Both the position numbers and the translations under genes were made by a program. The notes under the pieces were generated by a model. That model saw nothing but the letters and a program-made list of their open reading frames with translations. It was not told the origin of the DNA and made no database searches. 56,538 bases of DNA, taken from the NCBI GenBank assembly GCA_001821615.1, contig MHMS01000006.1:1-56538 (forward strand). Direction: 5' to 3'. Below, piece after piece: positions 18,305-32,876 of the stretch. Every line of letters begins with the position of its first letter. Within the stretch, counting starts at the first letter, position 1. The stretch comes from Candidatus Niyogibacteria bacterium RIFCSPLOWO2_12_FULL_41_13. Lineage in GTDB: Bacteria; Patescibacteriota; Minisyncoccia; 2-12-FULL-41-13.

Positions 18305-19066
18305 TTATACGGCCAACCAGCCGCCGTCCACATAAAATGTGGCGCCGGTAACATAACTTGATTCTTCCGAAGCTAAAAAAACTACCATACTAGAAACTTC
18401 TTCGGGTCTGCCGATTCTTTTTAGCGGGACGCGCTGGAGCATTGCGTCCATCGCTTGTTTTGGAATTTGCGCCGCTTGCACCATAGGCGTATCAATCGCG
18501 CCCGGCGCTATAACATTCACATTAATTCCGAGAGGAGCCCACTCAATCGCGAGAGTTTCCGACATGCCTATAATTCCGCCCTTTGACGCGGTGTAGTGCG
18601 CTCCGCCGGTGATTCCCACGCCAACTTGCCCGGAAGCAACCGATGAAATATTGATAATCCTCCCCCATTTGTTTTTTGCCATTTCTTTCGCGGCTCGTTG
18701 CGCGCAAAGAAATTGTCCTTTCAGATTAATATCAATCATTTTATCCCACTCTTCTTCGGTAAGTTCCAGCGCCGGTTTTGAAAAATAAATTCCCGCGTTA
18801 TTCACTAAAACATCCAGACGGCCAAACTGTTTTATAACTTCGTCAAAAACCTGATTCACTTCAGCTTTGTTTGAAACATCCATCTTGAAACAGGCCGCTT
18901 CCCCGCCTTTTGATTTTATTTCTTCAACAACCGGCGCGCATTCGTTCGCGTCAATGTCCGTCACAACAACTTTCGCGCCTTGGCTCGCCAAAGCCAATGC
19001 GTGAGTTCTTCCCATTCCTCGCCTGCCGCCAGTAATCAAAGCTATCTTATTTTTGAGTTCAAACAT
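18305..19066 (-). CDS. SDR-family oxidoreductase (FabG-like)
   Basis: TGGRRGMG Rossmann motif, NNAG, YTASK catalytic motif. Confidence 0.88.
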   Translation of the reverse strand: MFELKNKIALITGGRRGMGRTHALALASQGAKVVVTDIDANECAPVVEEIKSKGGEAACFKMDVSNKAEVNQVFDEVIKQFGRLDVLVNNAGIYFSKPALELTEEEWDKMIDINLKGQFLCAQRAAKEMAKNKWGRIINISSVASGQVGVGITGGAHYTASKGGIIGMSETLAIEWAPLGINVNVIAPGAIDTPMVQAAQIPKQAMDAMLQRVPLKRIGRPEEVSSMVVFLASEESSYVTGATFYVDGGWLAV

Positions 19067-19129
19067 ATTTTTATTATATCGCTTTTACGCGTTTTAAAAA
19101 AGTTTATTTATCCCCATATTTAGAAAAGC

Positions 19130-19584
19130 CGCTAGAGGCGGATCCGCCTTCGGCGGAAAAGCTTTGGCGAACAAATCGGCTGACAAGAATCCGACTTCTT
19201 CGGAAAACCTATCCCGTAGACAGACCTCGCTCTTTCCGCAGAAATGGCGGGGTTCTTCGGGGTCGGAAGTTCGTATCTAGTTTATTGGCTCCGAACGCTG
19301 AACGAAATCCGAACCTTTTTCCGCGAAAATCCTGACACTGATTTCTAACGCTCCGCCCCGCCGCCGCTCGCTAACGCTCGCCAGCCAGCAAAAAAGTTTT
19401 CTTCGCTTTTCCTGATTTGCGCGCGCCGGATTTTTTCTTCTGCAAAGGAAAAGAATGTTTTGCTTGGCTCTGCCCCTAACGAAGCAGGCGGCGGGGCTGG
19501 CCTCTTTTGTACTTGCTCGGACGGCTCGGCATTTCCTCCCCCCAACCCCCTCCTGCCGAGCCGTCCTTGCGTGGGCTGGCGGGA
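19130..19584. repeat. GC-rich mosaic repeat region R1
   Basis: Contains the 16-mer AGTTCGTATCTAGTTT (19268-19283). Also contains an inverted copy of a hairpin module with a 12-bp stem, GACGGCTCGGCA (19520-19531) / TGCCGAGCCGTC (19554-19565). Confidence 0.7.
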
Positions 19585-20874
19585 TTATTGAATTTTAACA
19601 GTTCCTTTCACTGGACGTCTAGTAATATCAGGTGAAACTCCGGCTTTTAATGCGGTTATAACGCCAGCGGCTTCCAGGTAATTATCCACGAAAAATACTT
19701 TATCATTTTTGAATGGAAGTTTTCGTAAGTCATTCTGCATCAGATTTTTATTTCCCCTTACAACAATCAGCGGAATATTGTTTTCTAAACATGCAAGCGT
19801 AGGCAAGCCAATACAACCATCGGGAATAACAACACAAGATACGTCCTCAAGGGTTATGCCATGATTTGACCCAACAATTCGAGGTGAACGGAACAACCCT
19901 TTTAGTACGCTATGCAAGTAGGTTGTGGAAGCAGATTCCGGTGCTTTTCTGGGGTCGACAACGCCTAACTCCAATTCCATAATTTCGCTTGAAGTCATCA
20001 TCGGAGAGTGAGCGCAGGGAATCTTGTATATTTCCGCAATACTATGAGTTAGCATCGCTTCTATGCCACCCCACGGGTTTATCATTTCGTCGGTTGAGAA
20101 ATACTTTTTGTGGTAGTCATCAGGCACTTTTATAAAAGTTGATAAACCGATAGCATCATAATTGTCTTTGAATTTCTCAATTACCGAAAAAAGATTTTCT
20201 AAACCACTTACTTCACCAATAGCTCGTCCAGATTGCGCATACTTTGAGATGCTTGTTATCAGATTCTCCATTTCATATACGTCGCAATCCATACCTAAGG
20301 TAATCCTGGCCGCCGATACCGCATTTATTATTTCTTCGTTGAAGAAACTTTCTGGGTGTTTATCCATCAGCATTAACACCCGGTTTGATCTGACCTTCTG
20401 CAACCCTATCTGACCAAGCAGTAACTTTGATAAAACGCTCCCTTCAACATACTGTGTGTTGTCTAGCATTTCGTTGATGTCCGCCGCATTAACTACATTT
20501 GGATGCGTTATGAGAATGTCGCTTGCCGCACCGATAAGCCGGGCAACTGAATTTCCATCGCCACAATGGCCTCCAATTTCTGCCCCGATACCCGTCGGGA
20601 TGAGAAGGACTGTGGTAAATTTATTGGTGTTTTCGTATTCCCGCTTCCTAAAATCAAAAACATTTCCTGCTAACGCAGTATATTTTTCCCCGGAAACGAT
20701 TGCGTCAATTTCACAATAATATCCTTGCTCATCAGATTTTGGGACGACAAATCTTACTATCCGATGAGGAATCTCTTTAGACAGAGTAGTCGCGTAATAA
20801 TGTTTCAAACTGGACAAATTTACTAAATCCAGTTTTTCTTTTGGGATGAATTGCTCAAAAGTTATTATTTTCAT
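19585..20874 (-). CDS. conserved uncharacterised protein (PTGIGAEIGGHCGDGN motif; possibly DUF3326-like)
   Basis: 429-aa ORF. LLIPTGIGAEIGGHCGDGNSVARLIGAASDILITHPNVVNAAD is reminiscent, from memory only, of DUF3326 proteins. ATGA overlap with the upstream gene. Confidence 0.5.
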   Translation of the reverse strand: MKIITFEQFIPKEKLDLVNLSSLKHYYATTLSKEIPHRIVRFVVPKSDEQGYYCEIDAIVSGEKYTALAGNVFDFRKREYENTNKFTTVLLIPTGIGAEIGGHCGDGNSVARLIGAASDILITHPNVVNAADINEMLDNTQYVEGSVLSKLLLGQIGLQKVRSNRVLMLMDKHPESFFNEEIINAVSAARITLGMDCDVYEMENLITSISKYAQSGRAIGEVSGLENLFSVIEKFKDNYDAIGLSTFIKVPDDYHKKYFSTDEMINPWGGIEAMLTHSIAEIYKIPCAHSPMMTSSEIMELELGVVDPRKAPESASTTYLHSVLKGLFRSPRIVGSNHGITLEDVSCVVIPDGCIGLPTLACLENNIPLIVVRGNKNLMQNDLRKLPFKNDKVFFVDNYLEAAGVITALKAGVSPDITRRPVKGTVKIQ

Positions 20875-21266
20875 TTTCTATTGACTACTATTTTGCTTGC
20901 TATCCTACCCTCGAAGAATTTACGAGAAAATTCTGCTGCTTCGTTGGCGTTAAAATCCTTACAGGAAAATATATTCAGGTAGACACTTTTCAAAATATCT
21001 AGTGTATGAATAGTGATGTTGCTTGTCATAATGAATTGTACCGCAGACGTGCCTTTAAGATGGGGCTCTGTCTGGCGTTCTTTAACTGGAAGACTATAAT
21101 CGTCCCACCAGTACAATTCCGCGCGTTGCATATCAATCAAGTTGCATAGTTTGATAAAGAATTTTTTAATAGTTCTTCTTTTGAATTTTTGCTGATTACA
21201 CTCATGCAAATCTAAAATAAGCTCTTTGCCGTAATACTTTTCCATCTTTGATGAGGGGGTTTTCAT
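20871..21266 (-). CDS. S-adenosylmethionine decarboxylase (SpeH/SpeD pyruvoyl fold)-like protein
   Basis: 131 aa. YGKELILDLHEC... and IMTSNITIHT...NIFSCKDF align to the SpeD pattern G.H...D...C / ISESHLTIHTWPE...DLFTCG. The processing ES is replaced by TS. Confidence 0.55.
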   Translation of the reverse strand: MKTPSSKMEKYYGKELILDLHECNQQKFKRRTIKKFFIKLCNLIDMQRAELYWWDDYSLPVKERQTEPHLKGTSAVQFIMTSNITIHTLDILKSVYLNIFSCKDFNANEAAEFSRKFFEGRIASKIVVNRK

Positions 21267-21272
21267 AACGAT

Positions 21273-21770
21273 TTATTTACAATCGATGTTCTTTTCGTAT
21301 ACAAGCGCATCACCCAAAAATATAAGATTCGGCCACCACTTTTCACCTTTCCCATCAACATCATTGATATAACTTCTCAATTCCTCATTTGAGAATGCTT
21401 TTTGGATGTAATAAGCAAAATTCACCCTGAATGTCTCGCAATCTATCAACTTTCTCTTGTATAGATTTCCGAGCGTTTCGAACGTCCCTAAATATCTATC
21501 AATTTCTCCCACACTAAACGGCCCTTCGGGCTGAAAAACTTTTTTAGTTTTATCTTCCGTATCGAGAGCATCCGAGATATTCAAATAAGGGCTATCGTCA
21601 AGATATTCACCAAATTTTAATGCAATGTCTGCAGATGTTCTTGATCGATAATCTCCGACCTGAATAAACGCGAAAACAACGCCAACAATAATCGCGATAT
21701 TCGCTATTTGTTGCAGAGAATGTTTCAAAATTTTGAAAGCATCCCTACGTTTTTCTTCCAATGTATTCAT
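21273..21770 (-). CDS. single-TM hypothetical protein (DUF4760-like?)
   Basis: 165 aa with an N-terminal TM (IANIAIIVGVVFAFIQV) and a soluble C-terminal domain. The family assignment is tentative. Confidence 0.4.
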   Translation of the reverse strand: MNTLEEKRRDAFKILKHSLQQIANIAIIVGVVFAFIQVGDYRSRTSADIALKFGEYLDDSPYLNISDALDTEDKTKKVFQPEGPFSVGEIDRYLGTFETLGNLYKRKLIDCETFRVNFAYYIQKAFSNEELRSYINDVDGKGEKWWPNLIFLGDALVYEKNIDCK

Positions 21771-21779
21771 AATAGTAAT

Positions 21780-22619
21780 TTACAATTTTCCCTCCTCTAG
21801 CTTTTCTGGAGGCGGCTCAATTCCGAGAAATTCCCGATAGATTCGATTTTTATATTCCGTCCCGATTTCATTTACCGCCTCTATAAATGCTTTGTATGTT
21901 CCAAGTCCACCAATCTTTTCCCAAAATTCGTCTCCGATTAAAACCACTTCGTCATTTTTCATATCAAACCACCGAGCTGAGAAAGCCCATGAGTAATTTT
22001 CCCGTTTTCCAAAAGGATTATATGGAAGCGCATAAAAAGCATCATCAACTTGTAGTGGCTCCATACAATAGAGTTTGAGCATTTTCTCTTTACTTACTTT
22101 CGTTTGATCGCTATTCGGCAATGGTGCTTTCAACTCAAAAGCATATTTCTTTTTATTTTTCCTATCCTCTGCATATACATCAGAAATAACCGTAACAGGA
22201 ATAAATTTTGTATTCTTACCTTCTAAAATGTATTCCAGTTCTTTGTCCCAATCTGGCTTAATCCGTTTCTTGTCCTTTACTCCATGTTCGAGATTATTCA
22301 GCACTTCTTGAATCCTGCGCAACCTTTCCGCATTTACTTTGCCTGTTATCGTGCGTCCCTTTTCTCCATATCCAAGACCCTTGTTTGCCGCCACTATTGC
22401 GAGTTTTTCCCAAACGCCGCCAAATGGTGTAACAAAGCGACGCTCAAAATGAGAGCCCTTAAATATCTCATCTGGCACTAAAGCGGCGTAAAGCGGCTTC
22501 TTGGCTCTATGCTCTTCTTTCATAAAAGGTTCTTCAACCAAAACTTTATTCATGACCCTATCCATCATCATTTTGATGACAGATTGGATTGCTTTTTTCA
22601 TTTCTTGTTTCTCGGTCAT
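21780..22619 (-). CDS. type II restriction endonuclease (TdeIII-like, PD-(D/E)XK)
   Basis: ORF adjacent to the methyltransferase. D...FELK catalytic-like motif (ISDVYAED...YAFELKAP). The ATG at 22617-22619 forms an ATGA overlap with the MTase stop. The track start at 22631 is a TTG. Confidence 0.6.
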   Translation of the reverse strand: MTEKQEMKKAIQSVIKMMMDRVMNKVLVEEPFMKEEHRAKKPLYAALVPDEIFKGSHFERRFVTPFGGVWEKLAIVAANKGLGYGEKGRTITGKVNAERLRRIQEVLNNLEHGVKDKKRIKPDWDKELEYILEGKNTKFIPVTVISDVYAEDRKNKKKYAFELKAPLPNSDQTKVSKEKMLKLYCMEPLQVDDAFYALPYNPFGKRENYSWAFSARWFDMKNDEVVLIGDEFWEKIGGLGTYKAFIEAVNEIGTEYKNRIYREFLGIEPPPEKLEEGKL

Positions 22620-23809
22620 ATTTTTTGCCAAATTAAAATACTTTCATAAAATGCACCTTCACGTCGTCCGGTTCGGCGGTTCACATGACGCTCAACCCTG
22701 CCAATTTCCTTAAAACCAGCGACTTCGGGCTTGTATAGCTTGTATTTATCATTTACCACAATGAGCGCGAGCGCATTTTTCGCCATATAATCTCGCGTGT
22801 GTAGCAAAACATCGTTTATCCCCTTGATGTAATCGCTCTTTGCTTGCTGTGATTGTCCATTCTTTGCTGGACCAATTTCTCGTATCTCATTGTTCTTTAG
22901 CCCCAATAATTCATAGGCATATTTATGCTGTTCGTGGTAATCAATTAACCCAATGTATGGGGGGGAGGTAAAAACCATATCAATACCTTTCGGCAATTCA
23001 ACTTCGCGAGAATCCCCGTGATTTACCACAACTTTAGCTTTTGTTTTTATCTTTGAAAATTCCTTTATGCGATCTAATGTATCAATCGTGTAACGCGATA
23101 AGAATTTATATGCTTCCTCCACCGGCTGACATGTTCGTTGGTGCTTATAACATTGATACGGTTTTGTCTGCGGCTCTTTAGGAAAATCCAAATCGTAATG
23201 CGTAACGAGCCGAGCCGAACGCGCCGAACGAGATAATATAGTTTTTAGTAAATCTTGATAAGTATAATCCTTAATGAGTCGCGAATAACATAAAAGTTCT
23301 TTTTGCGTGTTTGGCGCAAACCATTTTTGTATATATTCATTTTTTGTCGAGAAAAGCCTATTCACTTTTTCATCTTTCGAAAATTTGCTTTTGTAGGTAT
23401 CAAGACGCTTCAAAGTACCGTAAATTTCTTTTTCAAGAAGCGGAATGTCATAATCGGCAGTTTTGACTTTTGAAAGTAAGGCATTAAAAGCAGAAATGTC
23501 CGTGCCGACTGAATCTATACCGAGAGCGTTTGCCTCAACCAAAGTTGTTCCGCTTCCCGCGAACGGATCATAAACAAGGGTTGGTTTATATTTCCGCAAA
23601 AATATCTCTACAAGTTGCGGAATAAATTTGCCGAGGTAGGGATGTAAGCGGTGAACGTGTTTTGTCCGTTGATATTCCGGCAAATCGCGCTCGCGCCAAT
23701 TCAAATTCAAAGCGTCAAGCGGCGTTTCCGGTTTTACACTTGCAAAATCGGTCAGTGGTTGCTGTTTATATTGCCGAGCTATTTTTTGTGCGATTGTATT
23801 GTCGTACAT
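22616..23809 (-). CDS. DNA methyltransferase (N6-A or N4-C, SPPY type)
   Basis: Motif I VYDPFAGSGTT and motif IV FTSPPY about 190 aa later. The start is uncertain: ATG at 23809, 7 nt after the wHTH stop, with the ORF open to 23881. Confidence 0.85.
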   Translation of the reverse strand: MYDNTIAQKIARQYKQQPLTDFASVKPETPLDALNLNWRERDLPEYQRTKHVHRLHPYLGKFIPQLVEIFLRKYKPTLVYDPFAGSGTTLVEANALGIDSVGTDISAFNALLSKVKTADYDIPLLEKEIYGTLKRLDTYKSKFSKDEKVNRLFSTKNEYIQKWFAPNTQKELLCYSRLIKDYTYQDLLKTILSRSARSARLVTHYDLDFPKEPQTKPYQCYKHQRTCQPVEEAYKFLSRYTIDTLDRIKEFSKIKTKAKVVVNHGDSREVELPKGIDMVFTSPPYIGLIDYHEQHKYAYELLGLKNNEIREIGPAKNGQSQQAKSDYIKGINDVLLHTRDYMAKNALALIVVNDKYKLYKPEVAGFKEIGRVERHVNRRTGRREGAFYESILIWQKI

Positions 23810-23816
23810 GGATTTA

Positions 23817-24113
23817 TTACTTGGTAAGTTCATTGAGTGCCTGCTCGACACCTTCGAGATTGACCATTGAGTAGTAGGCACGACGACCAGCGCGGGAAGT
23901 GCCTTCTTTTCTCAAAATGCCGAAGCTGACGAGCAAGCGTAGATTTGAAAACCTAAGCCCTTTTTTCTGCACACGCTTAAATACCCACGTCCCGGCAAAA
24001 TCGCCCTTAATCTCTTTCGAGAGATTCAAGCACTCTTGCACTATGGGTAGCCAGTCTGGTCGTTCAACGGCAAGCCGCTTGACGGCCTTGTATCCAGAAA
24101 TTTCCTCGGTCAT
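23817..24113 (-). CDS. small winged-helix DNA-binding protein (putative controller of the operon)
   Basis: 98 aa from the ATG at 24113 (MTEEISGYKAVKRLAVERPDW...). The longer track ORF to 24287 runs into the GC-rich repeat and is discounted. Confidence 0.55.
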   Translation of the reverse strand: MTEEISGYKAVKRLAVERPDWLPIVQECLNLSKEIKGDFAGTWVFKRVQKKGLRFSNLRLLVSFGILRKEGTSRAGRRAYYSMVNLEGVEQALNELTK

Positions 24114-24119
24114 GCTATA

Positions 24120-24149
24120 ATCATAATGTATCAATGTGATACAAGTCAA
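24120..24149 (-). promoter_or_regulatory. promoter with embedded palindromic operator
   Basis: Minus strand reads TTGACT-tgtatcacattgatacat-TATGAT-tatagc-ATG. The 17-bp palindrome TGTATCA-nnn-TGATACA (24127-24143) fills the spacer. Confidence 0.55.
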
Positions 24150-24155
24150 TAAACC

Positions 24156-24520
24156 GCCCCGCAAAAAATCCGCCAGCCCACGCGAAGACGGCTCGGCAGG
24201 AGGGGGTTTGGGGGACGCCCCGAAGCAGAACAAGTTCGCTACGGGGTAAAAATGCCGAGCCGTCCGAGCGAACCCTCTTATCTTCAAAATCCGAGTTCGT
24301 ATCTAGTTTTGTGACTCTGTATTCTTAAGATAGTTCGAACGCATTTCGCCGCCTGCGGCGGCGAGGAAGTCCCGCCCGCAAGTGCGGCTCTGCCGCGCCG
24401 ACCTGTCCGCCGAAGTTTTAACGAAGGCGGATGACAATTTTCCGCCTACGTTTTCCGAGCTACGGCGGACAAGCAAGTTTTTCTTTGGCGGCAAATTCTT
24501 TGTTCTTTCAAATTCAAAAA
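24156..24520. repeat. GC-rich mosaic repeat region R2
   Basis: Direct-orientation hairpin module (stem 24187-24198 / 24253-24264), the 16-mer AGTTCGTATCTAGTTT (24294-24309), and a module shared with 30350-30472. Confidence 0.7.
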
Positions 24521-24563: not shown

Positions 24564-25196
24564 TCATGCTTCCTTCGGAATCAGCGAGAACGCGAGTTCC
24601 TCGACTTCAACCATCTGAGCGAGGTTGAGAGCTTGGTTGTAGAGCGACTTGCGGTGTTCCGCAAAGCCCTTGATGACCTTACCAAGCTCTTTCCACATCC
24701 GCTGGGGTTTCTCCTTGGTCTTTGTAGCGATAGCGGGTAGGTCGGTCTCGACAATCTCGACAGTTCTTGCTCTCTCGTAGCCGCGATCCTTGTAACCATT
24801 CTCACCCACGAAACCGATGGTCACGAGAACCCACAGGCCGGAACGCGTGAGTCCCCATACTCGCATTGTTCCGTCTGGACAGTTCACACCGCCAGGAGGT
24901 GGACGATGACCGCTGTTGGGGATTCGCTCCACGGCTGACCACGGCTGTATCCGGAAGATTCCCTGCGTCTTGAGCGAGAACCGCTCGTCTCCGATGGTGG
25001 TTGCGATGTCCAACCGAAGCATGTGTGTGAAGCTGGTTTCACTCCGCATGCATTCGAGCGTGCCGAGTTCGGGAAGCGTGAATGAATCAAGGTGCGGTTT
25101 GATGAGCTCGCGACGGGCCTCGATTAGGCCAAACCACTCCTCATCGATGAGCTGATTCTTACGAACGAACACTTCTAATCCTTTGGTTGAGGGCAT
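24564..25196 (-). CDS. hypothetical protein, compositionally foreign (GC-rich)
   Basis: 211 aa from the ATG at 25196, preceded by GGAGGAGGG. GC content is visibly far above the surroundings. It has its own terminator. No recognisable domain. Confidence 0.6.
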   Translation of the reverse strand: MPSTKGLEVFVRKNQLIDEEWFGLIEARRELIKPHLDSFTLPELGTLECMRSETSFTHMLRLDIATTIGDERFSLKTQGIFRIQPWSAVERIPNSGHRPPPGGVNCPDGTMRVWGLTRSGLWVLVTIGFVGENGYKDRGYERARTVEIVETDLPAIATKTKEKPQRMWKELGKVIKGFAEHRKSLYNQALNLAQMVEVEELAFSLIPKEA

Positions 25197-25458
25197 ACCC
25201 TCCTCCTTTCTGGTTTTGAGAGGCGTACCTCTCGCCAAAAGTATCTTCGCACACGTCTAGTTATTAGTCAATCAAAAACAGAAATTTTTTCAAGTTTCCG
25301 TTTCCAAAATCATTATGCAAAATTTTTCTTTTCCCAAAATGGAAAACCGCCAATTCAAATTTTCGCCCAGAAAACCTTACGATTTGGTCGCCGAGTCCGC
25401 CAAAAGGGCGGATAAACTCCGCGAGGCGACTTCCAAAACCTTGCAATTTTCTAACTGA

Positions 25459-25757
25459 CTCCGCGGGTAGGATTCGAACCTACGACCAAGTGCTTACAAC
25501 TTTCTCATTATTACTAACGAGGTTGGACTATATCTTTACCATACCAAATTTTTAATTCGGATTAGGTATCTCGGTATCTAGTCTCTACGGCGCCCGAGCA
25601 CATAAAGCATTATGTGCTCGGTTCCCACGGTATTACCGAGCACATAACAAGTTTATGTGCTCGGCTTCACCGTTATCCCAAGATGTTCATTCCAAAGTTT
25701 CCTTTGGAAGCTGCAAGTTTTTTACAGGCACCTGCGCTACCGCTGCGCTACCGCGGA
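25459..25757 (-). tRNA. tRNA-Asn(GUU) interrupted by a group I intron in the anticodon loop
   Basis: 5' exon 25724-25757 (TCCGCGGTAGCGCAGCGGTAGCGCAGGTGCCTGT) and 3' exon 25459-25496 (TAAGCACTTGGTCGTAGGTTCGAATCCTACCCGCGGAG). The spliced product is a cloverleaf with U1-A72, G73 and anticodon loop CUGUUAA. Confidence 0.8.
25497..25723 (-). ncRNA. group I (IC3-like) intron, 227 nt, no ORF
   Basis: The 5' exon ends in U, paired as U.G in P1 (CUGU/GCAG). The intron ends in G. The core GUAGAGACUAGA is identical to the Azoarcus/Anabaena tRNA intron core as recalled from memory. There is a P9-like hairpin CUCGUUA-GUAA-UAAUGAG. Confidence 0.75.
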
Positions 25758-31168: not shown

Positions 31169-31368
31169 AGGCGAAGCGAAGGCGGTGCCTTTTGGTTAAA
31201 ATCCGAACTTTTTTTGACGAAAATCCGGACGTTGAATTCTGAAATCCGAACGCTCGGGCGGGTAAAAAGGAAGGGGGTTGGGGGGGGGAAGGAATTTTTG
31301 CCCCCCCTCGCTTTTCCACCGCCGCTGAATTTCGTGCCAGCGAAGCTGGCGCGCCGCCATAAATAAAT
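31169..31368. repeat. GC-rich mosaic repeat region R4
   Basis: Contains GGAAGGGGGTTGGGGGGGGGAAGG, similar to G-tracts at 24199-24214 and 19532-19553 (rc), and AAATCCGAAC motifs. Confidence 0.55.
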
Positions 31369-32457
31369 TTATTTTTCTGATTCTTCAATTTTTACGCCCA
31401 AGTTCATTTTTCTAAAAACTACACTTGGCACAACGGTTAAAGCATAATCTAACCTGTTATCTTTGGATTCTGCGATAATTATTCCCTTTACTTTCTGGCT
31501 ATTTTTACATAAATTCTCATTTACCCAACCCATGTACCGAAGAATTTGACCTAATGTTTGATCTGTAGAATTTCTTTTCAACTCGATGACTACCAAGTCT
31601 TTGTTTTTATCAACTGTCAAAAAATCAATTATACCAACCTCTTGTGTATCGAACTGGCCATGCTTTTCATTTTGCCTTTCAAGATCATAATAACTCAACT
31701 CTCCGCCAAAGAGCTGTGTAAAGTTTCTATGAATAAGACTTTGGTAATGCTGAACTTCCAAGGCTTCGATCTGTGGCGTAATCTCGGTGCGTTCAACTTC
31801 AATAGTATCTGTTTCAAAAATATCAAATAACTTATACAAAAGATGCCCAAAATCATCATTTGACAAATTGGGTGCATATTTATTTTTTGTATCTAATAAC
31901 AAATAATTATTTCTAAGATAAAGTTCCACCCCGGAAGTTTCGGGCATATAATCTTCATATAATTTTGCAAGAAAGGCATCCTGATGGCCAAAAATGTTAA
32001 TAAAAATCCCCGGGAAGTAAATCGAAAGTGCTTTACCAACCAATGCCCGTCTAACGCCCTTAATATCTTTTGAATCTTTTATAATCTCTTGCGAAAATTG
32101 AGTTAATTCACCTGTCGGTGTATAAAATTGTTCAATTGAATTATTGGCGGAAATAATTTTTATTAAATATTTCTTGATTTTATCAAAATCTTGTTCGTAT
32201 CCAAATTTATAAACGCTACCACCACCGATACTACCCAAAAACTTAGAGCCCCATTCCAATTCATAACTAAAATTTCCTTGCATTATGCCCCGCCCCTGAA
32301 AATAGTGGTCTTTATCTAACCTTGCGATTTTTTCTTTAGAAAATTCGCTTAAAAAATAATTCCTTTTGCTTTCAATCTCTTTCTTGTCTTCATCCGATAA
32401 GTGAAACTTATCAGCGTTTTCGATAATTAAACCCTTTGCGTTTTCTTTTAGTATCAT
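31369..32457 (-). CDS. NucS/DUF91-like PD-(D/E)XK nuclease domain protein with novel N-terminal domain
   Basis: The C-terminal VGIIDFLTVDKNKDLVVIELKRNSTDQTLGQILRYMGWV...KGIIIAESKD is the NucS-type nuclease signature. The N-terminal ~240 aa are unassigned. Confidence 0.6.
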   Translation of the reverse strand: MILKENAKGLIIENADKFHLSDEDKKEIESKRNYFLSEFSKEKIARLDKDHYFQGRGIMQGNFSYELEWGSKFLGSIGGGSVYKFGYEQDFDKIKKYLIKIISANNSIEQFYTPTGELTQFSQEIIKDSKDIKGVRRALVGKALSIYFPGIFINIFGHQDAFLAKLYEDYMPETSGVELYLRNNYLLLDTKNKYAPNLSNDDFGHLLYKLFDIFETDTIEVERTEITPQIEALEVQHYQSLIHRNFTQLFGGELSYYDLERQNEKHGQFDTQEVGIIDFLTVDKNKDLVVIELKRNSTDQTLGQILRYMGWVNENLCKNSQKVKGIIIAESKDNRLDYALTVVPSVVFRKMNLGVKIEESEK

Positions 32458-32620: not shown

Positions 32621-32789
32621 AAATGTTTATTAATAAACGCTCTGCCAAAACCTGATTTCAAATATTTTTCAAATTTAAAAGCTCTTAGCGAAGCTCGCCT
32701 TCGCGAAGCTTCTTGACGGACTGCATCACGCCGAAGCCGAGCCGATTCCCGCCTTTGTTTTGCGGAGCAAAACTTCGGCGAGGCGAAGG

Positions 32790-32876
32790 CGGAAGGGGTG
32801 GGATTTGAACCCACGAAAGGATTTCTCCTTTACGGCTTTTCCAAAGCCGCGCACTAGACCGCTATGCGACCCTTCC
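32790..32876 (-). tRNA. tRNA-Ser(GGA)
   Basis: GGAAGGG acceptor, 3-bp D stem, anticodon loop UUGGAAA, long variable arm, GTGGG-TTCAAAT-CCCAC T arm, discriminator G. Confidence 0.88.

Follow-up and report, generated by a model that had tools for sequence, protein, structure and literature searches.

Staphylococcal cassette chromosome elements (SCCmec and the ccr-less pseudo-SCC) are moved by large serine recombinases (LSRs), with the 3' end of a single conserved gene as insertion site. Direct repeats of about 15-18 bp delimit them, with imperfect inverted repeats at the termini, and they stack in tandem. Recombinase-less SCC cassettes persist and are mobilisable in trans, and restriction-modification (R-M) genes are often carried. 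Each of these traits (LSR, 3'-end target, repeats, tandem stacking, recombinase-less cassettes and R-M cargo) has a counterpart in the elements considered here, whose hosts are ultra-small (CPR/Patescibacteria) bacteria and which are set beside SCC by traits, not by ccr sequence. The target is rlmH in SCC, whereas it is a tRNA 3' end in the CPR family. Furthermore, unlike in SCC, the recombinase and the cargo of the CPR family each lie within long (114-356 bp) near-perfect inverted repeats, and the att core is spanned by the end of the recombinase reading frame.

A comparable organization is found in the streamlined genome of Prochlorococcus, where the integrative elements called tycheposons occupy tRNA genes, carry cargo and have partial tRNA copies on their flanks; newcomers push older elements deeper into the island, and the older events are marked by fragmented integrases and extra partial tRNAs (10.1101/2020.12.28.424599). 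Most of them (910 of 937) use tyrosine recombinases and many possess replication modules (10.1101/2020.12.28.424599). Tycheposons thus resemble the CPR family in being cargo elements at tRNA genes with partial tRNA copies and layered older remnants, but paired inverted repeats or an internal inverted attP are not described for them, and their cargo serves mainly nutrient acquisition rather than R-M (10.1101/2020.12.28.424599). The large serine integrases of phages and ICEs (phiC31, Bxb1, A118, SPbeta SprA) share the domains Resolvase, Recombinase and Zn_ribbon_recom with the CPR LSR and likewise leave hybrid junctions by site-specific integration. Their elements, however, have one attP and short att sites with arms that are not duplicated as long inverted repeats, and they are far larger than the CPR recombinase module of about 1.5 kb plus a cargo cassette of 1.3-6 kb.

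In the P1 C segment (Cin), the Mu G segment (Gin) and the 2-micron plasmid, as in the CPR family, the crossover site is at the outer end of long inverted repeats and the recombinase gene stands beside the segment. This likeness is one of sequence architecture alone: Cin and Gin are small serine invertases and FLP is a tyrosine recombinase, and none of these systems targets tRNA genes, unlike the CPR family. A 2-micron-like circle, in which two inverted repeats part two unique arcs, would nevertheless fit the free form proposed below. Integron gene cassettes (attC hairpins, IntI) are also recombinase-less, bounded by structured imperfect palindromes and arrayed as accessory genes, but attC sites are all co-oriented and recombined single-stranded by a tyrosine recombinase. 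The CPR hairpins form inverted pairs, show no attC R/L boxes (no GTTRRRY boxes in the consensus) and are linked to a serine recombinase and tRNA ends, and an integron origin was rejected.

For the serine-integrase family itself, no description was found in the searchable literature. The 5-kb island analysed here, located in a 56,538-nt stretch of Candidatus Niyogibacteria DNA (the window), is a decayed R-M cassette of this widespread family that has lost its integrase. As judged from sequence, the family inserts at tRNA genes of CPR bacteria.

Organization of the island

The preliminary description had reported a 16-mer in the same orientation at both ends of the island, and this repeat is indeed exact. 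AGTTCGTATCTAGTTT occurs at 19268-19283 and 24294-24309, both on the plus strand; these are its only exact copies in the whole 562-kb, 26-contig assembly, and the shuffle expectation is 0.02 matches, even with 2 mismatches tolerated. The direct repeat extends to about 54 nt at 70% identity. In both copies a degenerate tRNA 3' end comes after the 16-mer, the adjoining pseudo-tRNA ends having the form GTTCG...GAG(C/T)CA-N-AAAC, and these ends share homology with the real tRNA-Asn junctions of L067, L087 and about 30 GTDB loci. The left border of the island is composed as follows.

18305..19066, minus strand: SDR/FabG-like gene, distal flank of the island array (Pfam adh_short_C2, 3.8e-72)
19067..19267, no strand: GC-rich non-coding flank X, outside the element; homology to related elements ends at the 16-mer
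19268..19283, plus strand: left 16-mer, att motif; attR-type junction A-core-X, exact repeat, abutting the 309-nt element terminus; the motif also follows tRNA-Asn in dozens of genomes
19284..19504, minus strand: A arm, structured central domain plus degenerate tRNA 3' end (...AAAAAGGTTCGGATTTCGTTCAGCGTTCGGAGCCAATA), with 17 further copies at other loci
19505..19592, minus strand: left hairpin module H1, in sense orientation directly 3' of the DUF3326 stop; CM R1 107 bits, stem covariation seen

Relatives of the SDR gene (75-92% aa identity) are present in 80 metagenome contigs, otherwise without synteny with the window, and BLAST with flank X (19067..19267) returned no related copy. The A arm contains a long helix with compensatory and G-U changes, and its terminal motif aligns with the 3' ends of real tRNAs.

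Two inverted hairpin modules had been described as bracketing a six-gene operon without a recombinase, and both statements were confirmed. The inverted arms are 89% complementary, over 54 nt for 19537-19590/24162-24215 and over 27 nt for 19515-19541/24243-24269. Each module copy carries the 12-bp stem GACGGCTCGGCA/TGCCGAGCCGTC, the loop being 22 nt long in one copy and 54 nt in the other, and the conserved heads (CCGCCAGCCCACGC) face inward, toward the genes. On the left, the module forms just the inner end of a longer conserved element of 309 nt (19284-19592), which abuts the 16-mer; the right module is without the tail of this element and stops after the hairpin. Exactly between the modules are six intact ORFs, all on the minus strand, and none of them encodes a recombinase.

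19585..20874, minus strand: DUF3326 protein, 429 aa, last operon gene (Pfam PF11805, 2.8e-84; no PADLOC match)
20871..21266, minus strand: AdoMet-decarboxylase-like (AdoMet_dc-like) protein, 131 aa (Pfam PF02675, 7.3e-13)
21273..21770, minus strand: 165-aa protein, no match in Pfam or PADLOC
21780..22631, minus strand: type II restriction endonuclease, TdeIII family (Pfam PF09520, 2.9e-72; PADLOC REase_II, 2.1e-40)
22616..23881, minus strand: type II N4/N6 DNA methyltransferase, 421 aa (Pfam N6_N4_Mtase; PADLOC MTase_II, 3.9e-91)
23817..24113, minus strand: 98-aa first operon gene, putative controller, in the position held by an HTH_3 gene in 18 of 25 sister cassettes; no Pfam match
24114..24152, minus strand: promoter-like TTGACT...TATGAT with the palindrome TGTATCA-CAT-TGATACA in the spacer, read from the sequence and with a putative function
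24160..24280, plus strand: right copy of module H1, antisense to the operon; its loop carries an inserted mini-hairpin of 32 nt; CM R1 93.5 bits, aligned to the left copy

The adjacent endonuclease and methyltransferase genes of recognised families make the cargo a predicted type II R-M system.

The tRNA-Asn side and the recombinase relics

The tRNA-Asn mentioned in the preliminary description does exist, at 25459-25757 on the minus strand; ARAGORN does not detect it, the gene being interrupted by a group I intron. It lies 1.15 kb from the right 16-mer and is co-oriented with both pseudo-ends, with another element remnant between. At this real tRNA-Asn the att motif is degenerate.

24266..24325, plus strand: LSR relic, last ~20 codons (ERTLLSSKSEFVSSFVTLYS*), running through the 16-mer; its translation matches the L047 LSR tail ERTLSSSKNEFVSNFMAPPTEHY
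24294..24309, plus strand: right 16-mer, junction A2-core-B; core plus linker CGGATTTTGAAGATAAGAGGGTTCGCTCG also stand beside LSR genes elsewhere
24310..24401, minus strand: A2 arm, a second degenerate 3' end of tRNA-Asn and part of the adjacent, tRNA-proximal remnant
24474..24498, minus strand: LSR N-terminal coding relic of 25 nt (GAATTTGCCGCCAAAGAAAAACTTG, 'EFAAKEKL'); the same string is within the L216 LSR 5' fragment
24564..25238, minus strand: GC-rich 224-aa ORF at the expected LSR gene position, no Pfam or PADLOC match
25250..25458, minus strand: B1-like arm (LSR leader type), a weak assignment, directly after tRNA-Asn; 67% over 120 nt to the L216 LSR-fragment leader, resembling the L054 B arm
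25459..25757, minus strand: tRNA-Asn(GTT) split by a group I intron (Rfam RF00028, 59.9 bits, 25504-25733; exons read), anchor of the island array

The right 16-mer together with the A2 arm (24294-24401) is 94% identical to L216 over 108 nt, and in L216 the same A2 arm comes before the core, followed by the B arm. GC content is 0.53-0.57 over the 224-aa ORF and its 3' flank, as against about 0.40 for the contig. At 24200-24313 there is a weak tblastn match to LSR. The serine-recombinase catalytic domain (PF00239) had no match in the whole assembly, where the sole LSR piece lies on contig C12, in a gene that is truncated at its 5' end and adjoins tRNA-Ala. Thus, instead of an LSR gene with its own inverted repeats beside the cassette, only the two relics remain. 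Since the LSR gene is reduced to relics, we file the island as a decayed derivative and not as an intact member of the family. The earlier view that such an island would be mobilised in trans or be fossilised therefore holds, the recombinase being gone save for the 20-codon tail relic: the island is either a fossil or mobilisable only in trans, and any present-day mobility would depend on a recombinase encoded elsewhere.

H1 cassettes and recombinase modules in other genomes

A CM R1 search detected H1 in 22 of 41 and in 100 of 301 sampled genomes of the same class. At least 25 same-contig pairs were arranged left(-)/right(+), heads inward and 1.3-6 kb apart. Most of these cassettes begin with an HTH gene and carry R-M cargo; their 104 ORFs (25 cassettes) comprise HTH_3 in 18, N6_N4 MTase in 8, D12 MTase in 5, C5 MTase in 2 and LexA-like proteins in 5. 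The paired copies are long inverted repeats (identical bases, for instance, 290/290, 294/294, 146/146 and 346/356). A second pair in the same genome, on contig C4, frames another TdeIII R-M system, whose endonuclease has only 25% identity to that of the window; the hairpin flanks and loop are conserved. None of eleven other pairs had direct repeats of at least 7 nt directly at the termini, the sole 7-nt flanking match (L063) being internal to the flanks. The preliminary description had regarded a scatter of hairpins and 16-mers over many loci unrelated to island boundaries as an argument against a mobile island; the many loci were found, yet they are themselves island boundaries.

Seven well-flanked loci share one layout: flank, cargo within a pair of inverted repeats (IR_A), LSR within a second pair (IR_B), and a real tRNA 3' end. 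In IR_A, the hairpin H1, with its G-rich loop, is the inner end, beside the cargo, and a degenerate tRNA 3' end is the outer one. LSR genes stand 110-260 nt outside the cassette (L047, L048, L051, L052, L054, L062, L063), and the four scanned against Pfam contain Resolvase, Recombinase and Zn_ribbon_recom. The recombinase is normally just outside the hairpin-bracketed cassette, which was hidden from the preliminary description. Each LSR is flanked by its own inverted repeat of 114-151 bp, 85-100% identical (at least 97% in 6 of 7), that begins 3-11 nt from the IR_A terminus. The far end of intact elements abuts real tRNAs (Leu, Lys, Gln, Asn), a tRNA-Ser adjoins the partial LSR of L026, and LSR orientation relative to the tRNA is constant at every locus checked. 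The H1 hairpins are accordingly the inner ends of the inverted repeats framing the cargo module of the family. In the window, too, the cargo is framed by an inverted IR_A pair starting with H1, heads inward, to which the two hairpins belong; the right end of the island matches neither a standard IR_A nor a standard IR_B copy.

In L047, L087 and L216, a pseudo-tRNA end, TAGATACGAACT and the linker are contiguous, that is, the left arm of the window is joined to the right arm, in attP-like order. The motif GAGCCANNAAAYTAGATACGAAC is present in 104 GTDB stretches, nearly all from Patescibacteria, and in about 30 of them it comes immediately after a complete tRNA-Asn. In many Patescibacteria an LSR family is integrated at this conserved motif downstream of tRNA-Asn. 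The 16-mer also encodes part of the LSR C-terminal tail. LSRs of the L047 type, whose 3' end abuts a tRNA, share 84-96% aa identity across MAGs (90-96% over matches of at least 200 residues) labelled Nomura-, Sacchari-, Magasanik-, Harrison- and Parcubacteria. As the sampled collections hold no genome of the same family, sites for comparison come from distant loci: L157 and L166 have tRNA-Asn and the motif followed by other DNA, and L087 has an 85-nt scar.

Origin of the island and competing explanations

With a probability of about 0.78, we consider the island to be one half, the cargo-bearing one, of an integrative element that targets tRNA genes; an LSR normally moves such elements, and here its gene has been deleted. 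On the minus strand, the window would read tRNA-Asn, a decayed LSR-module remnant that contains the GC-rich 224-aa ORF and terminates in pseudo-tRNA arm A2, 16-mer, and then the LSR-tail relic fused to H1, the R-M operon, H1, the central domain, pseudo-tRNA arm A, 16-mer, flank and SDR gene. From this reading we infer that the 16-mer is an att motif duplicated by site-specific integration, presumably catalysed by the LSR. The preliminary description had proposed that the island is or once was mobile, with structured inverted ends and att-like repeats, and the att motif of the LSR family together with the IR_A homology supports this. In intact relatives, IR_A and IR_B meet at a short shared core, across which the LSR reading frame ends. 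The free form could be a circle carrying two inverted copies of the attachment region, and integration through one of them would give the observed layout. As a reconstruction, the body of the LSR was probably lost by deletion between CGAGC-flanked hairpins. Several points count against this explanation: if the island arrived second, beside an occupied tRNA, its LSR would have had to accept an attL-like site, and the 16-nt junction identity exceeds what a serine integrase needs. The non-standard right end, the weak B1-arm assignment and the degenerate motif at the real tRNA-Asn also speak against it, and a search of the sampled collections for an orthologous empty site found none.

The cassette might instead be an invertible (flip-flop), phase-variable segment, with its inverted repeats as substrates of the neighbouring serine recombinase or of RecA (compare the phage P1 C segment and the 2-micron plasmid). 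Long perfect inverted repeats, the shared core at their outer ends and a recombinase gene just outside would agree with this, and one locus, L052, has its cargo turned round with respect to the LSR as compared with the six other loci, which come from different genomes. The window, however, has direct and not inverted 16-mers and no LSR, and its operon appears to have its own promoter, so that inversion would change nothing obvious. Moreover, inversion leaves unexplained the tRNA-end copies at the outer junctions, and the LSR keeps a constant orientation relative to the tRNA at all checked loci. We regard this explanation as unlikely, although inversion could coexist with integration as a secondary activity.

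Very improbable is a reading in which the hairpins are common REP-like structures of this lineage, terminators or insulators flanking the operon by chance, with the 16-mer a coincidence or regulatory box and nothing mobile. Single H1 copies do usually follow a stop codon immediately, in sense orientation, with A-runs before the head, and the hairpin is very stable; but no U-tract adjoins the stem in either orientation, the second copy stands antisense with no gene before it, and copies are identical within a pair and different between pairs of one genome. The low chance expectation of the 16-mer and the homology of the arms to LSR att regions at tRNAs add to this, and the LSR/tRNA context largely refutes the idea, H1 possibly acting as a terminator inside the element. 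Scarcely credible, finally, is a composite or non-autonomous transposon made of two MITE-like hairpin elements served in trans by a DDE or Y1 transposase. Inverted ends, the lack of a transposase inside and the many copies at contig ends would suit it, but the enzyme that accompanies these elements is a serine recombinase, insertion takes place at tRNA 3' ends, and the eleven other pairs show no target duplication. The 16-mer, which would have to be a target-site duplication, is not a variable, random target but a conserved sequence common to more than 100 loci, the motif of the 104 GTDB stretches. Composite and MITE-flanked transposons were consequently rejected and, of the earlier alternative of att-like or target direct repeats, the former stands, as an integrase att motif following tRNA-Asn.

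Beyond the cargo-half reading, we tentatively propose, as possible rather than probable, that the island is a cassette without a recombinase, mobilisable in trans, from a distinct and undescribed class of minimal mobile elements that would be a vehicle for R-M and other defence genes in much of the CPR. Such elements would combine a highly conserved serine integrase whose att site lies in its own last codons, a tRNA 3' end as target, and a 2-micron-like circle in which both att arms persist as long inverted repeats and an attP lies inverted inside. If this is true, the H1-bracketed cargo modules could be exchanged, inverted or abandoned as self-contained cassettes, and the conserved structured domain of about 200 nt beside H1 would serve the system as a functional co-factor, either RNA or DNA.

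Organization of the island and its bracketing repeats

The island, an R-M cassette of ~5 kb beside tRNA-Asn, is delimited by two identical copies of the 16-mer AGTTCGTATCTAGTTT, at 19268-19283 and 24294-24309, both on the + strand. As the preliminary description had claimed, this same-orientation pair is exact at both sites. No further exact copy occurs in the whole 562-kb, 26-contig genome (~40% GC), and shuffles gave 0.02 chance matches with two mismatches permitted. The hairpin modules (H1) reported just inside the repeats are likewise borne out by complementary arms of 54 nt (19537-19590 / 24162-24215, 89%) and 27 nt (19515-19541 / 24243-24269, 89%), by their stems and by loops of 22 and 54 nt. 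Each H1 copy consists of a 12-13 bp stem with a 2x2 internal loop and two closing G-C pairs, and the conserved heads (CCGCCAGCCCACGC) point towards the genes. Six intact minus-strand ORFs lie between the modules, in agreement with the six-gene operon proposed there, and a recombinase is indeed absent among these six bracketed genes.

Genes of the island operon
Gene 1, (-): 98-aa protein, promoter-like site upstream with a palindromic spacer
(-): N4/N6 MTase
(-): TdeIII-family REase
(-): 165-aa protein
(-): AdoMet_dc-like protein
(-): DUF3326 protein

A tblastn search with the cargo proteins in every fetched locus revealed no second copy of this operon. No Rfam family matched the hairpin or the surrounding 309-nt element at E values up to 5; in the window, the gathering score was reached by a group I intron and tRNA-Ser only. 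The loop of the right H1 contains a mini-hairpin of ~30 nt (CCCCGAAGCAGAACAAGTTCGCTACGGGG, 24215-24246), seen again in the H1 loop of another genome and beside att cores (L044/L013, L154, L166, L167). In this recurrence, it resembles a very small mobile palindrome.

Hairpin-bracketed cassettes in related genomes

A covariance model built on three copies detected H1 in 22/41 and 100/301 genomes of the same class, none of them from the window's family, with one to nine copies per positive genome, many at contig ends. At least 25 same-contig pairs are arranged left(-)/right(+), heads inward, 1.3-6 kb apart; the reverse arrangement was found for ~10 pairs, half of them too partial for orientation. 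In 36 distinct copies, aligned by fitting to the model, 98.3% of the stem cells are paired, 14/15 stem pairs show compensatory changes and G-U pairs are very few. The stem changes are almost solely double Watson-Crick swaps, which fits a DNA-level palindrome. H1 could be a terminator, an insulator or a protein-binding palindrome. The preliminary description had proposed looking for H1 and the 16-mer elsewhere as a check on the island boundaries, and the boundaries stand: H1 pairs bracket cassettes in many genomes, and the window's own genome holds no other exact 16-mer.

Pfam assignments of 104 ORFs from 25 cassettes comprise HTH_3 (18 ORFs), N6_N4 MTase (8), D12 MTase (5), LexA-like (5), C5 MTase (2), TdeIII (2), Vsr (2) and AAA_15 (2). 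In nearly all cassettes with an HTH_3 gene, it occupies the first position, beside the antisense hairpin. The window's genome carries a second inverted H1 pair on contig C4 (36256-39844; L001 6257-9845), enclosing an HTH controller, a TdeIII REase, an N6_N4 MTase and an AAA_15 ATPase. The right H1 is cut off by the contig end, the repeat having broken the assembly. The C4 stem (GGGCGAGGCGGA/TCCGCCTCGCCC) covaries, and head and G-rich loop are kept. Since the TdeIII REases of the two cassettes share only 25% identity, the ends are far better conserved than the cargo.

Extending the H1 copies outward revealed a conserved element of ~300 nt, composed of three parts.

Parts of the ~300-nt element
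Part 1: H1
Part 2: central domain, comprising a small hairpin that covaries and a helix of ~22 bp showing compensatory and G-U changes
Part 3: terminal motif ...AAAAAGGTTCGGATTTCGTTCAGCGTTCGGAGCCAATA

The window carries a full copy (19284-19592, -), whose terminus falls exactly at the 16-mer, and a right-hand copy without the element tail. The long helix of the central domain (19284-19504) has many G-U pairs, which fits RNA or single-strand structure. A structured RNA is one possible role for this domain. Elsewhere, the inverted repeat framing the cargo (IR_A) is formed by nearly or fully identical arms (290/290, 294/294, 146/146, 191/192 and 346/356 bases) with sharp outer boundaries. Inverted ends of this kind would suit a transposon; since no target duplication was found at eleven other pairs, this reading was abandoned. 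IS200/IS605-type, integron attC, pdif-module and Helitron-like ends were also considered and were excluded by the orientation and by the enzyme found.

Recombinase modules and putative docking at tRNA genes

This enzyme is a large serine recombinase (LSR). In locus L047 of another genome, the right repeat is followed by ...GGGAGCCATAAA-ATTAGATACGAACTC-ATTTTTTGAAGATGAGAGTGTTCGCTCG-hairpin and then by a 468-aa ORF with Resolvase, Recombinase and Zn_ribbon_recom domains. In L048, L051, L052, L054, L062 and L063 a homologous gene is found 110-260 nt beyond the cassette, and a partial one is present in L026. Each LSR gene is framed by a second inverted repeat, IR_B, of 114-151 bp (97-100% identical in six loci, 85% in L063), which starts within 3-11 nt of the IR_A terminus and in whose distal copy the LSR reading frame ends. 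Past the distal IR_B stands a real tRNA 3' end (Leu, Lys, Gln, Ser or Asn), and a degenerate copy of such an end forms the outer terminus of IR_A. With A denoting the arm that finishes in this degenerate copy, B the LSR-side arm and X the non-element flank, each locus shows three junction types: tRNA / B, A / B and A / X. These are the junctions expected if a circle with two inverted attachment regions (A-core-B) integrated via one copy into a tRNA 3' end, and we infer that such an integration produced them. Flipping of the LSR module is unsupported, its 3' end facing the tRNA in every checked locus. In one locus, L052, the cargo is reversed relative to the LSR.

In the GTDB species set, 104 stretches contain the motif TAGATACGAACT with GAGCCA-NNAAAY in front, nearly all of them from Patescibacteria with many different lineage names. 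Among the loci displayed, a complete tRNA-Asn(GTT) lies directly 5' of the motif in ~30 and tRNA-Gln in two; at tRNA loci the usual sequel is a B arm and an LSR with its 3' end towards the tRNA. The tRNA-linked LSR shows 90-96% aa identity over matches of at least 200 residues, shorter fragments going down to 84%, across MAGs labelled Nomura-, Sacchari-, Magasanik-, Harrison- and Parcubacteria, which points to a recent spread of this integrase type across phylum-named lineages. The reverse complement of the 16-mer is similar to the tRNA T-loop (AGTTCGTATCTA vs GGTTCGAATCCTA) and, together with the T-arm, forms an imperfect dyad centred at the acceptor end. This dyad is likely the integrase site, with a crossover near GAGCC. 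Head-to-head pairs of the att motif, 17-66 nt apart, were observed in L161, L188, L190 and L219; the arrangement resembles that of an LSR module after collapse between its inverted repeats.

Probable history of the locus and relation to known elements

ARAGORN reported no tRNA at the island because a group I intron without an ORF (RF00028, 59.9 bits) interrupts the anticodon loop of the tRNA-Asn(GTT) gene (25459-25757, -). Several further features lie between this gene and the island.

Junctions of the island and features towards tRNA-Asn
Left junction: A-end / 16-mer / X (19067-19267)
Right junction: A2 (right degenerate tRNA 3' end) / 16-mer / linker plus hairpin
24294-24401: arm A2, 94% identity to L216 over 108 nt, right 16-mer included
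Between right junction and tRNA-Asn: LSR N-terminal coding relic, 25 nt
24564-25238, (-): GC-rich 224-aa ORF, at the place expected for an LSR gene
Adjoining tRNA-Asn: leader-like arm

The A side and the linker side, separated in the window, adjoin as one stretch in L047, L087 and L216; this contiguity is the mark of site-specific integration and not of target duplication. The translation of 24266-24325 (+), ERTLLSSKSEFVSSFVTLYS*, agrees with the LSR C-terminal tail ERTLSSSKNEFVSNFM..., so that the 16-mer falls into the terminal codons of an LSR gene now lost. As in intact elements, the reading direction of that gene would have been from the cargo to A2. H1 and the tail relic meet at CGAGC, a pentamer found beside the IR_B hairpin of relatives too, which suggests a deletion that would have taken the distal part of IR_A, the core, IR_B and the LSR body. 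Later, a second element would have inserted at tRNA-Asn and displaced the R-M island outward, its presumed remnant being the stretch between the right junction and the tRNA; this order of events is the one we favour. We judge the island to be a real, decayed, recombinase-less member of the tRNA-targeting LSR element family.

GC content over the 24564-25238 ORF and its 3' flank is 0.53-0.57 vs ~0.40 for the contig. Another GC-rich ORF lies inside an LSR 5' fragment of L216 (~700-1200), with GAATTCGCCGCCAAAGAAAAACTTG duplicated on its two sides; such ORFs may reflect a distinct type of insertion, in which a gene enters an integrase gene. The right flank has a further GC-rich repeat (24433-24508), with copies of 90-96% identity on contig C23 of the same genome and a 28-nt match at 100% in several metagenome loci. 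The only LSR piece of the assembly, on contig C12 (1-1140; L145), is 5'-truncated, retains Recombinase and Zn-ribbon domains only, abuts the 3' end of tRNA-Ala(GGC) and is preceded at the contig start by two tandem 58-nt repeats; it may be the missing neighbour of the C4 cassette. No Resolvase domain was found in the assembly (95.7% complete). In the window, nhmmer matches 31183-31421 (-) to part of the central domain and terminus of the ~300-nt element (E = 1.8e-5), and H1 is weakly matched at 31229-31322, among small accessory genes near tRNA-Ser(GGA) (32788-32876). This arrangement suggests that another decayed array of this type lies beside tRNA-Ser.

An orthologous empty site was not found in 80 metagenome contigs carrying homologues (75-92% aa identity) of the SDR gene (18305-19066, -) on the distal flank of the island, nor in the collections searched, which hold no genome of the same family. 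None of the 80 contigs shares the window's neighbours beside the SDR homologue, and none has homologues of flank X or of the genes past SDR. In the distant group L087-L095, tRNA-Asn is followed by an 85-nt scar, 1.8 kb and then an SDR gene, a layout that may parallel an empty site. An SDR gene also lies downstream of the tRNA-Asn islands in L067 and L087, so this gene, too, might travel as part of a cassette.

In function, the closest parallels of the island are SCC cassettes without ccr and decayed tycheposons. Tycheposon newcomers likewise push older elements outward (10.1101/2020.12.28.424599). SCC arrays behave similarly. Compared with known serine-integrase elements, this family differs in both att arms being doubled as long inverted repeats, in the att core lying within the integrase's own 3' end, in its very small size and in its use of tRNA genes as target. 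In the literature searched, we found no description of such a family and no paper linking serine integrases, tRNA targets and CPR. Few mobile elements have been recognised in the tiny genomes of CPR/Patescibacteria, whose acquisition of defence genes is poorly understood. For annotation, H1 and the tRNA-end/TAGATACGAAC motif mark island boundaries and assembly breaks in these genomes. Together, the locus and its relatives represent a compact serine-integrase system with tRNA genes as docking sites; its cargo consists of self-regulated R-M cassettes, and stacked recombinase-less islands are left behind. If functional, the two-inverted-repeat design would be a new organisation for a site-specific element and would make very small serine-integrase/att pairs available from nature.
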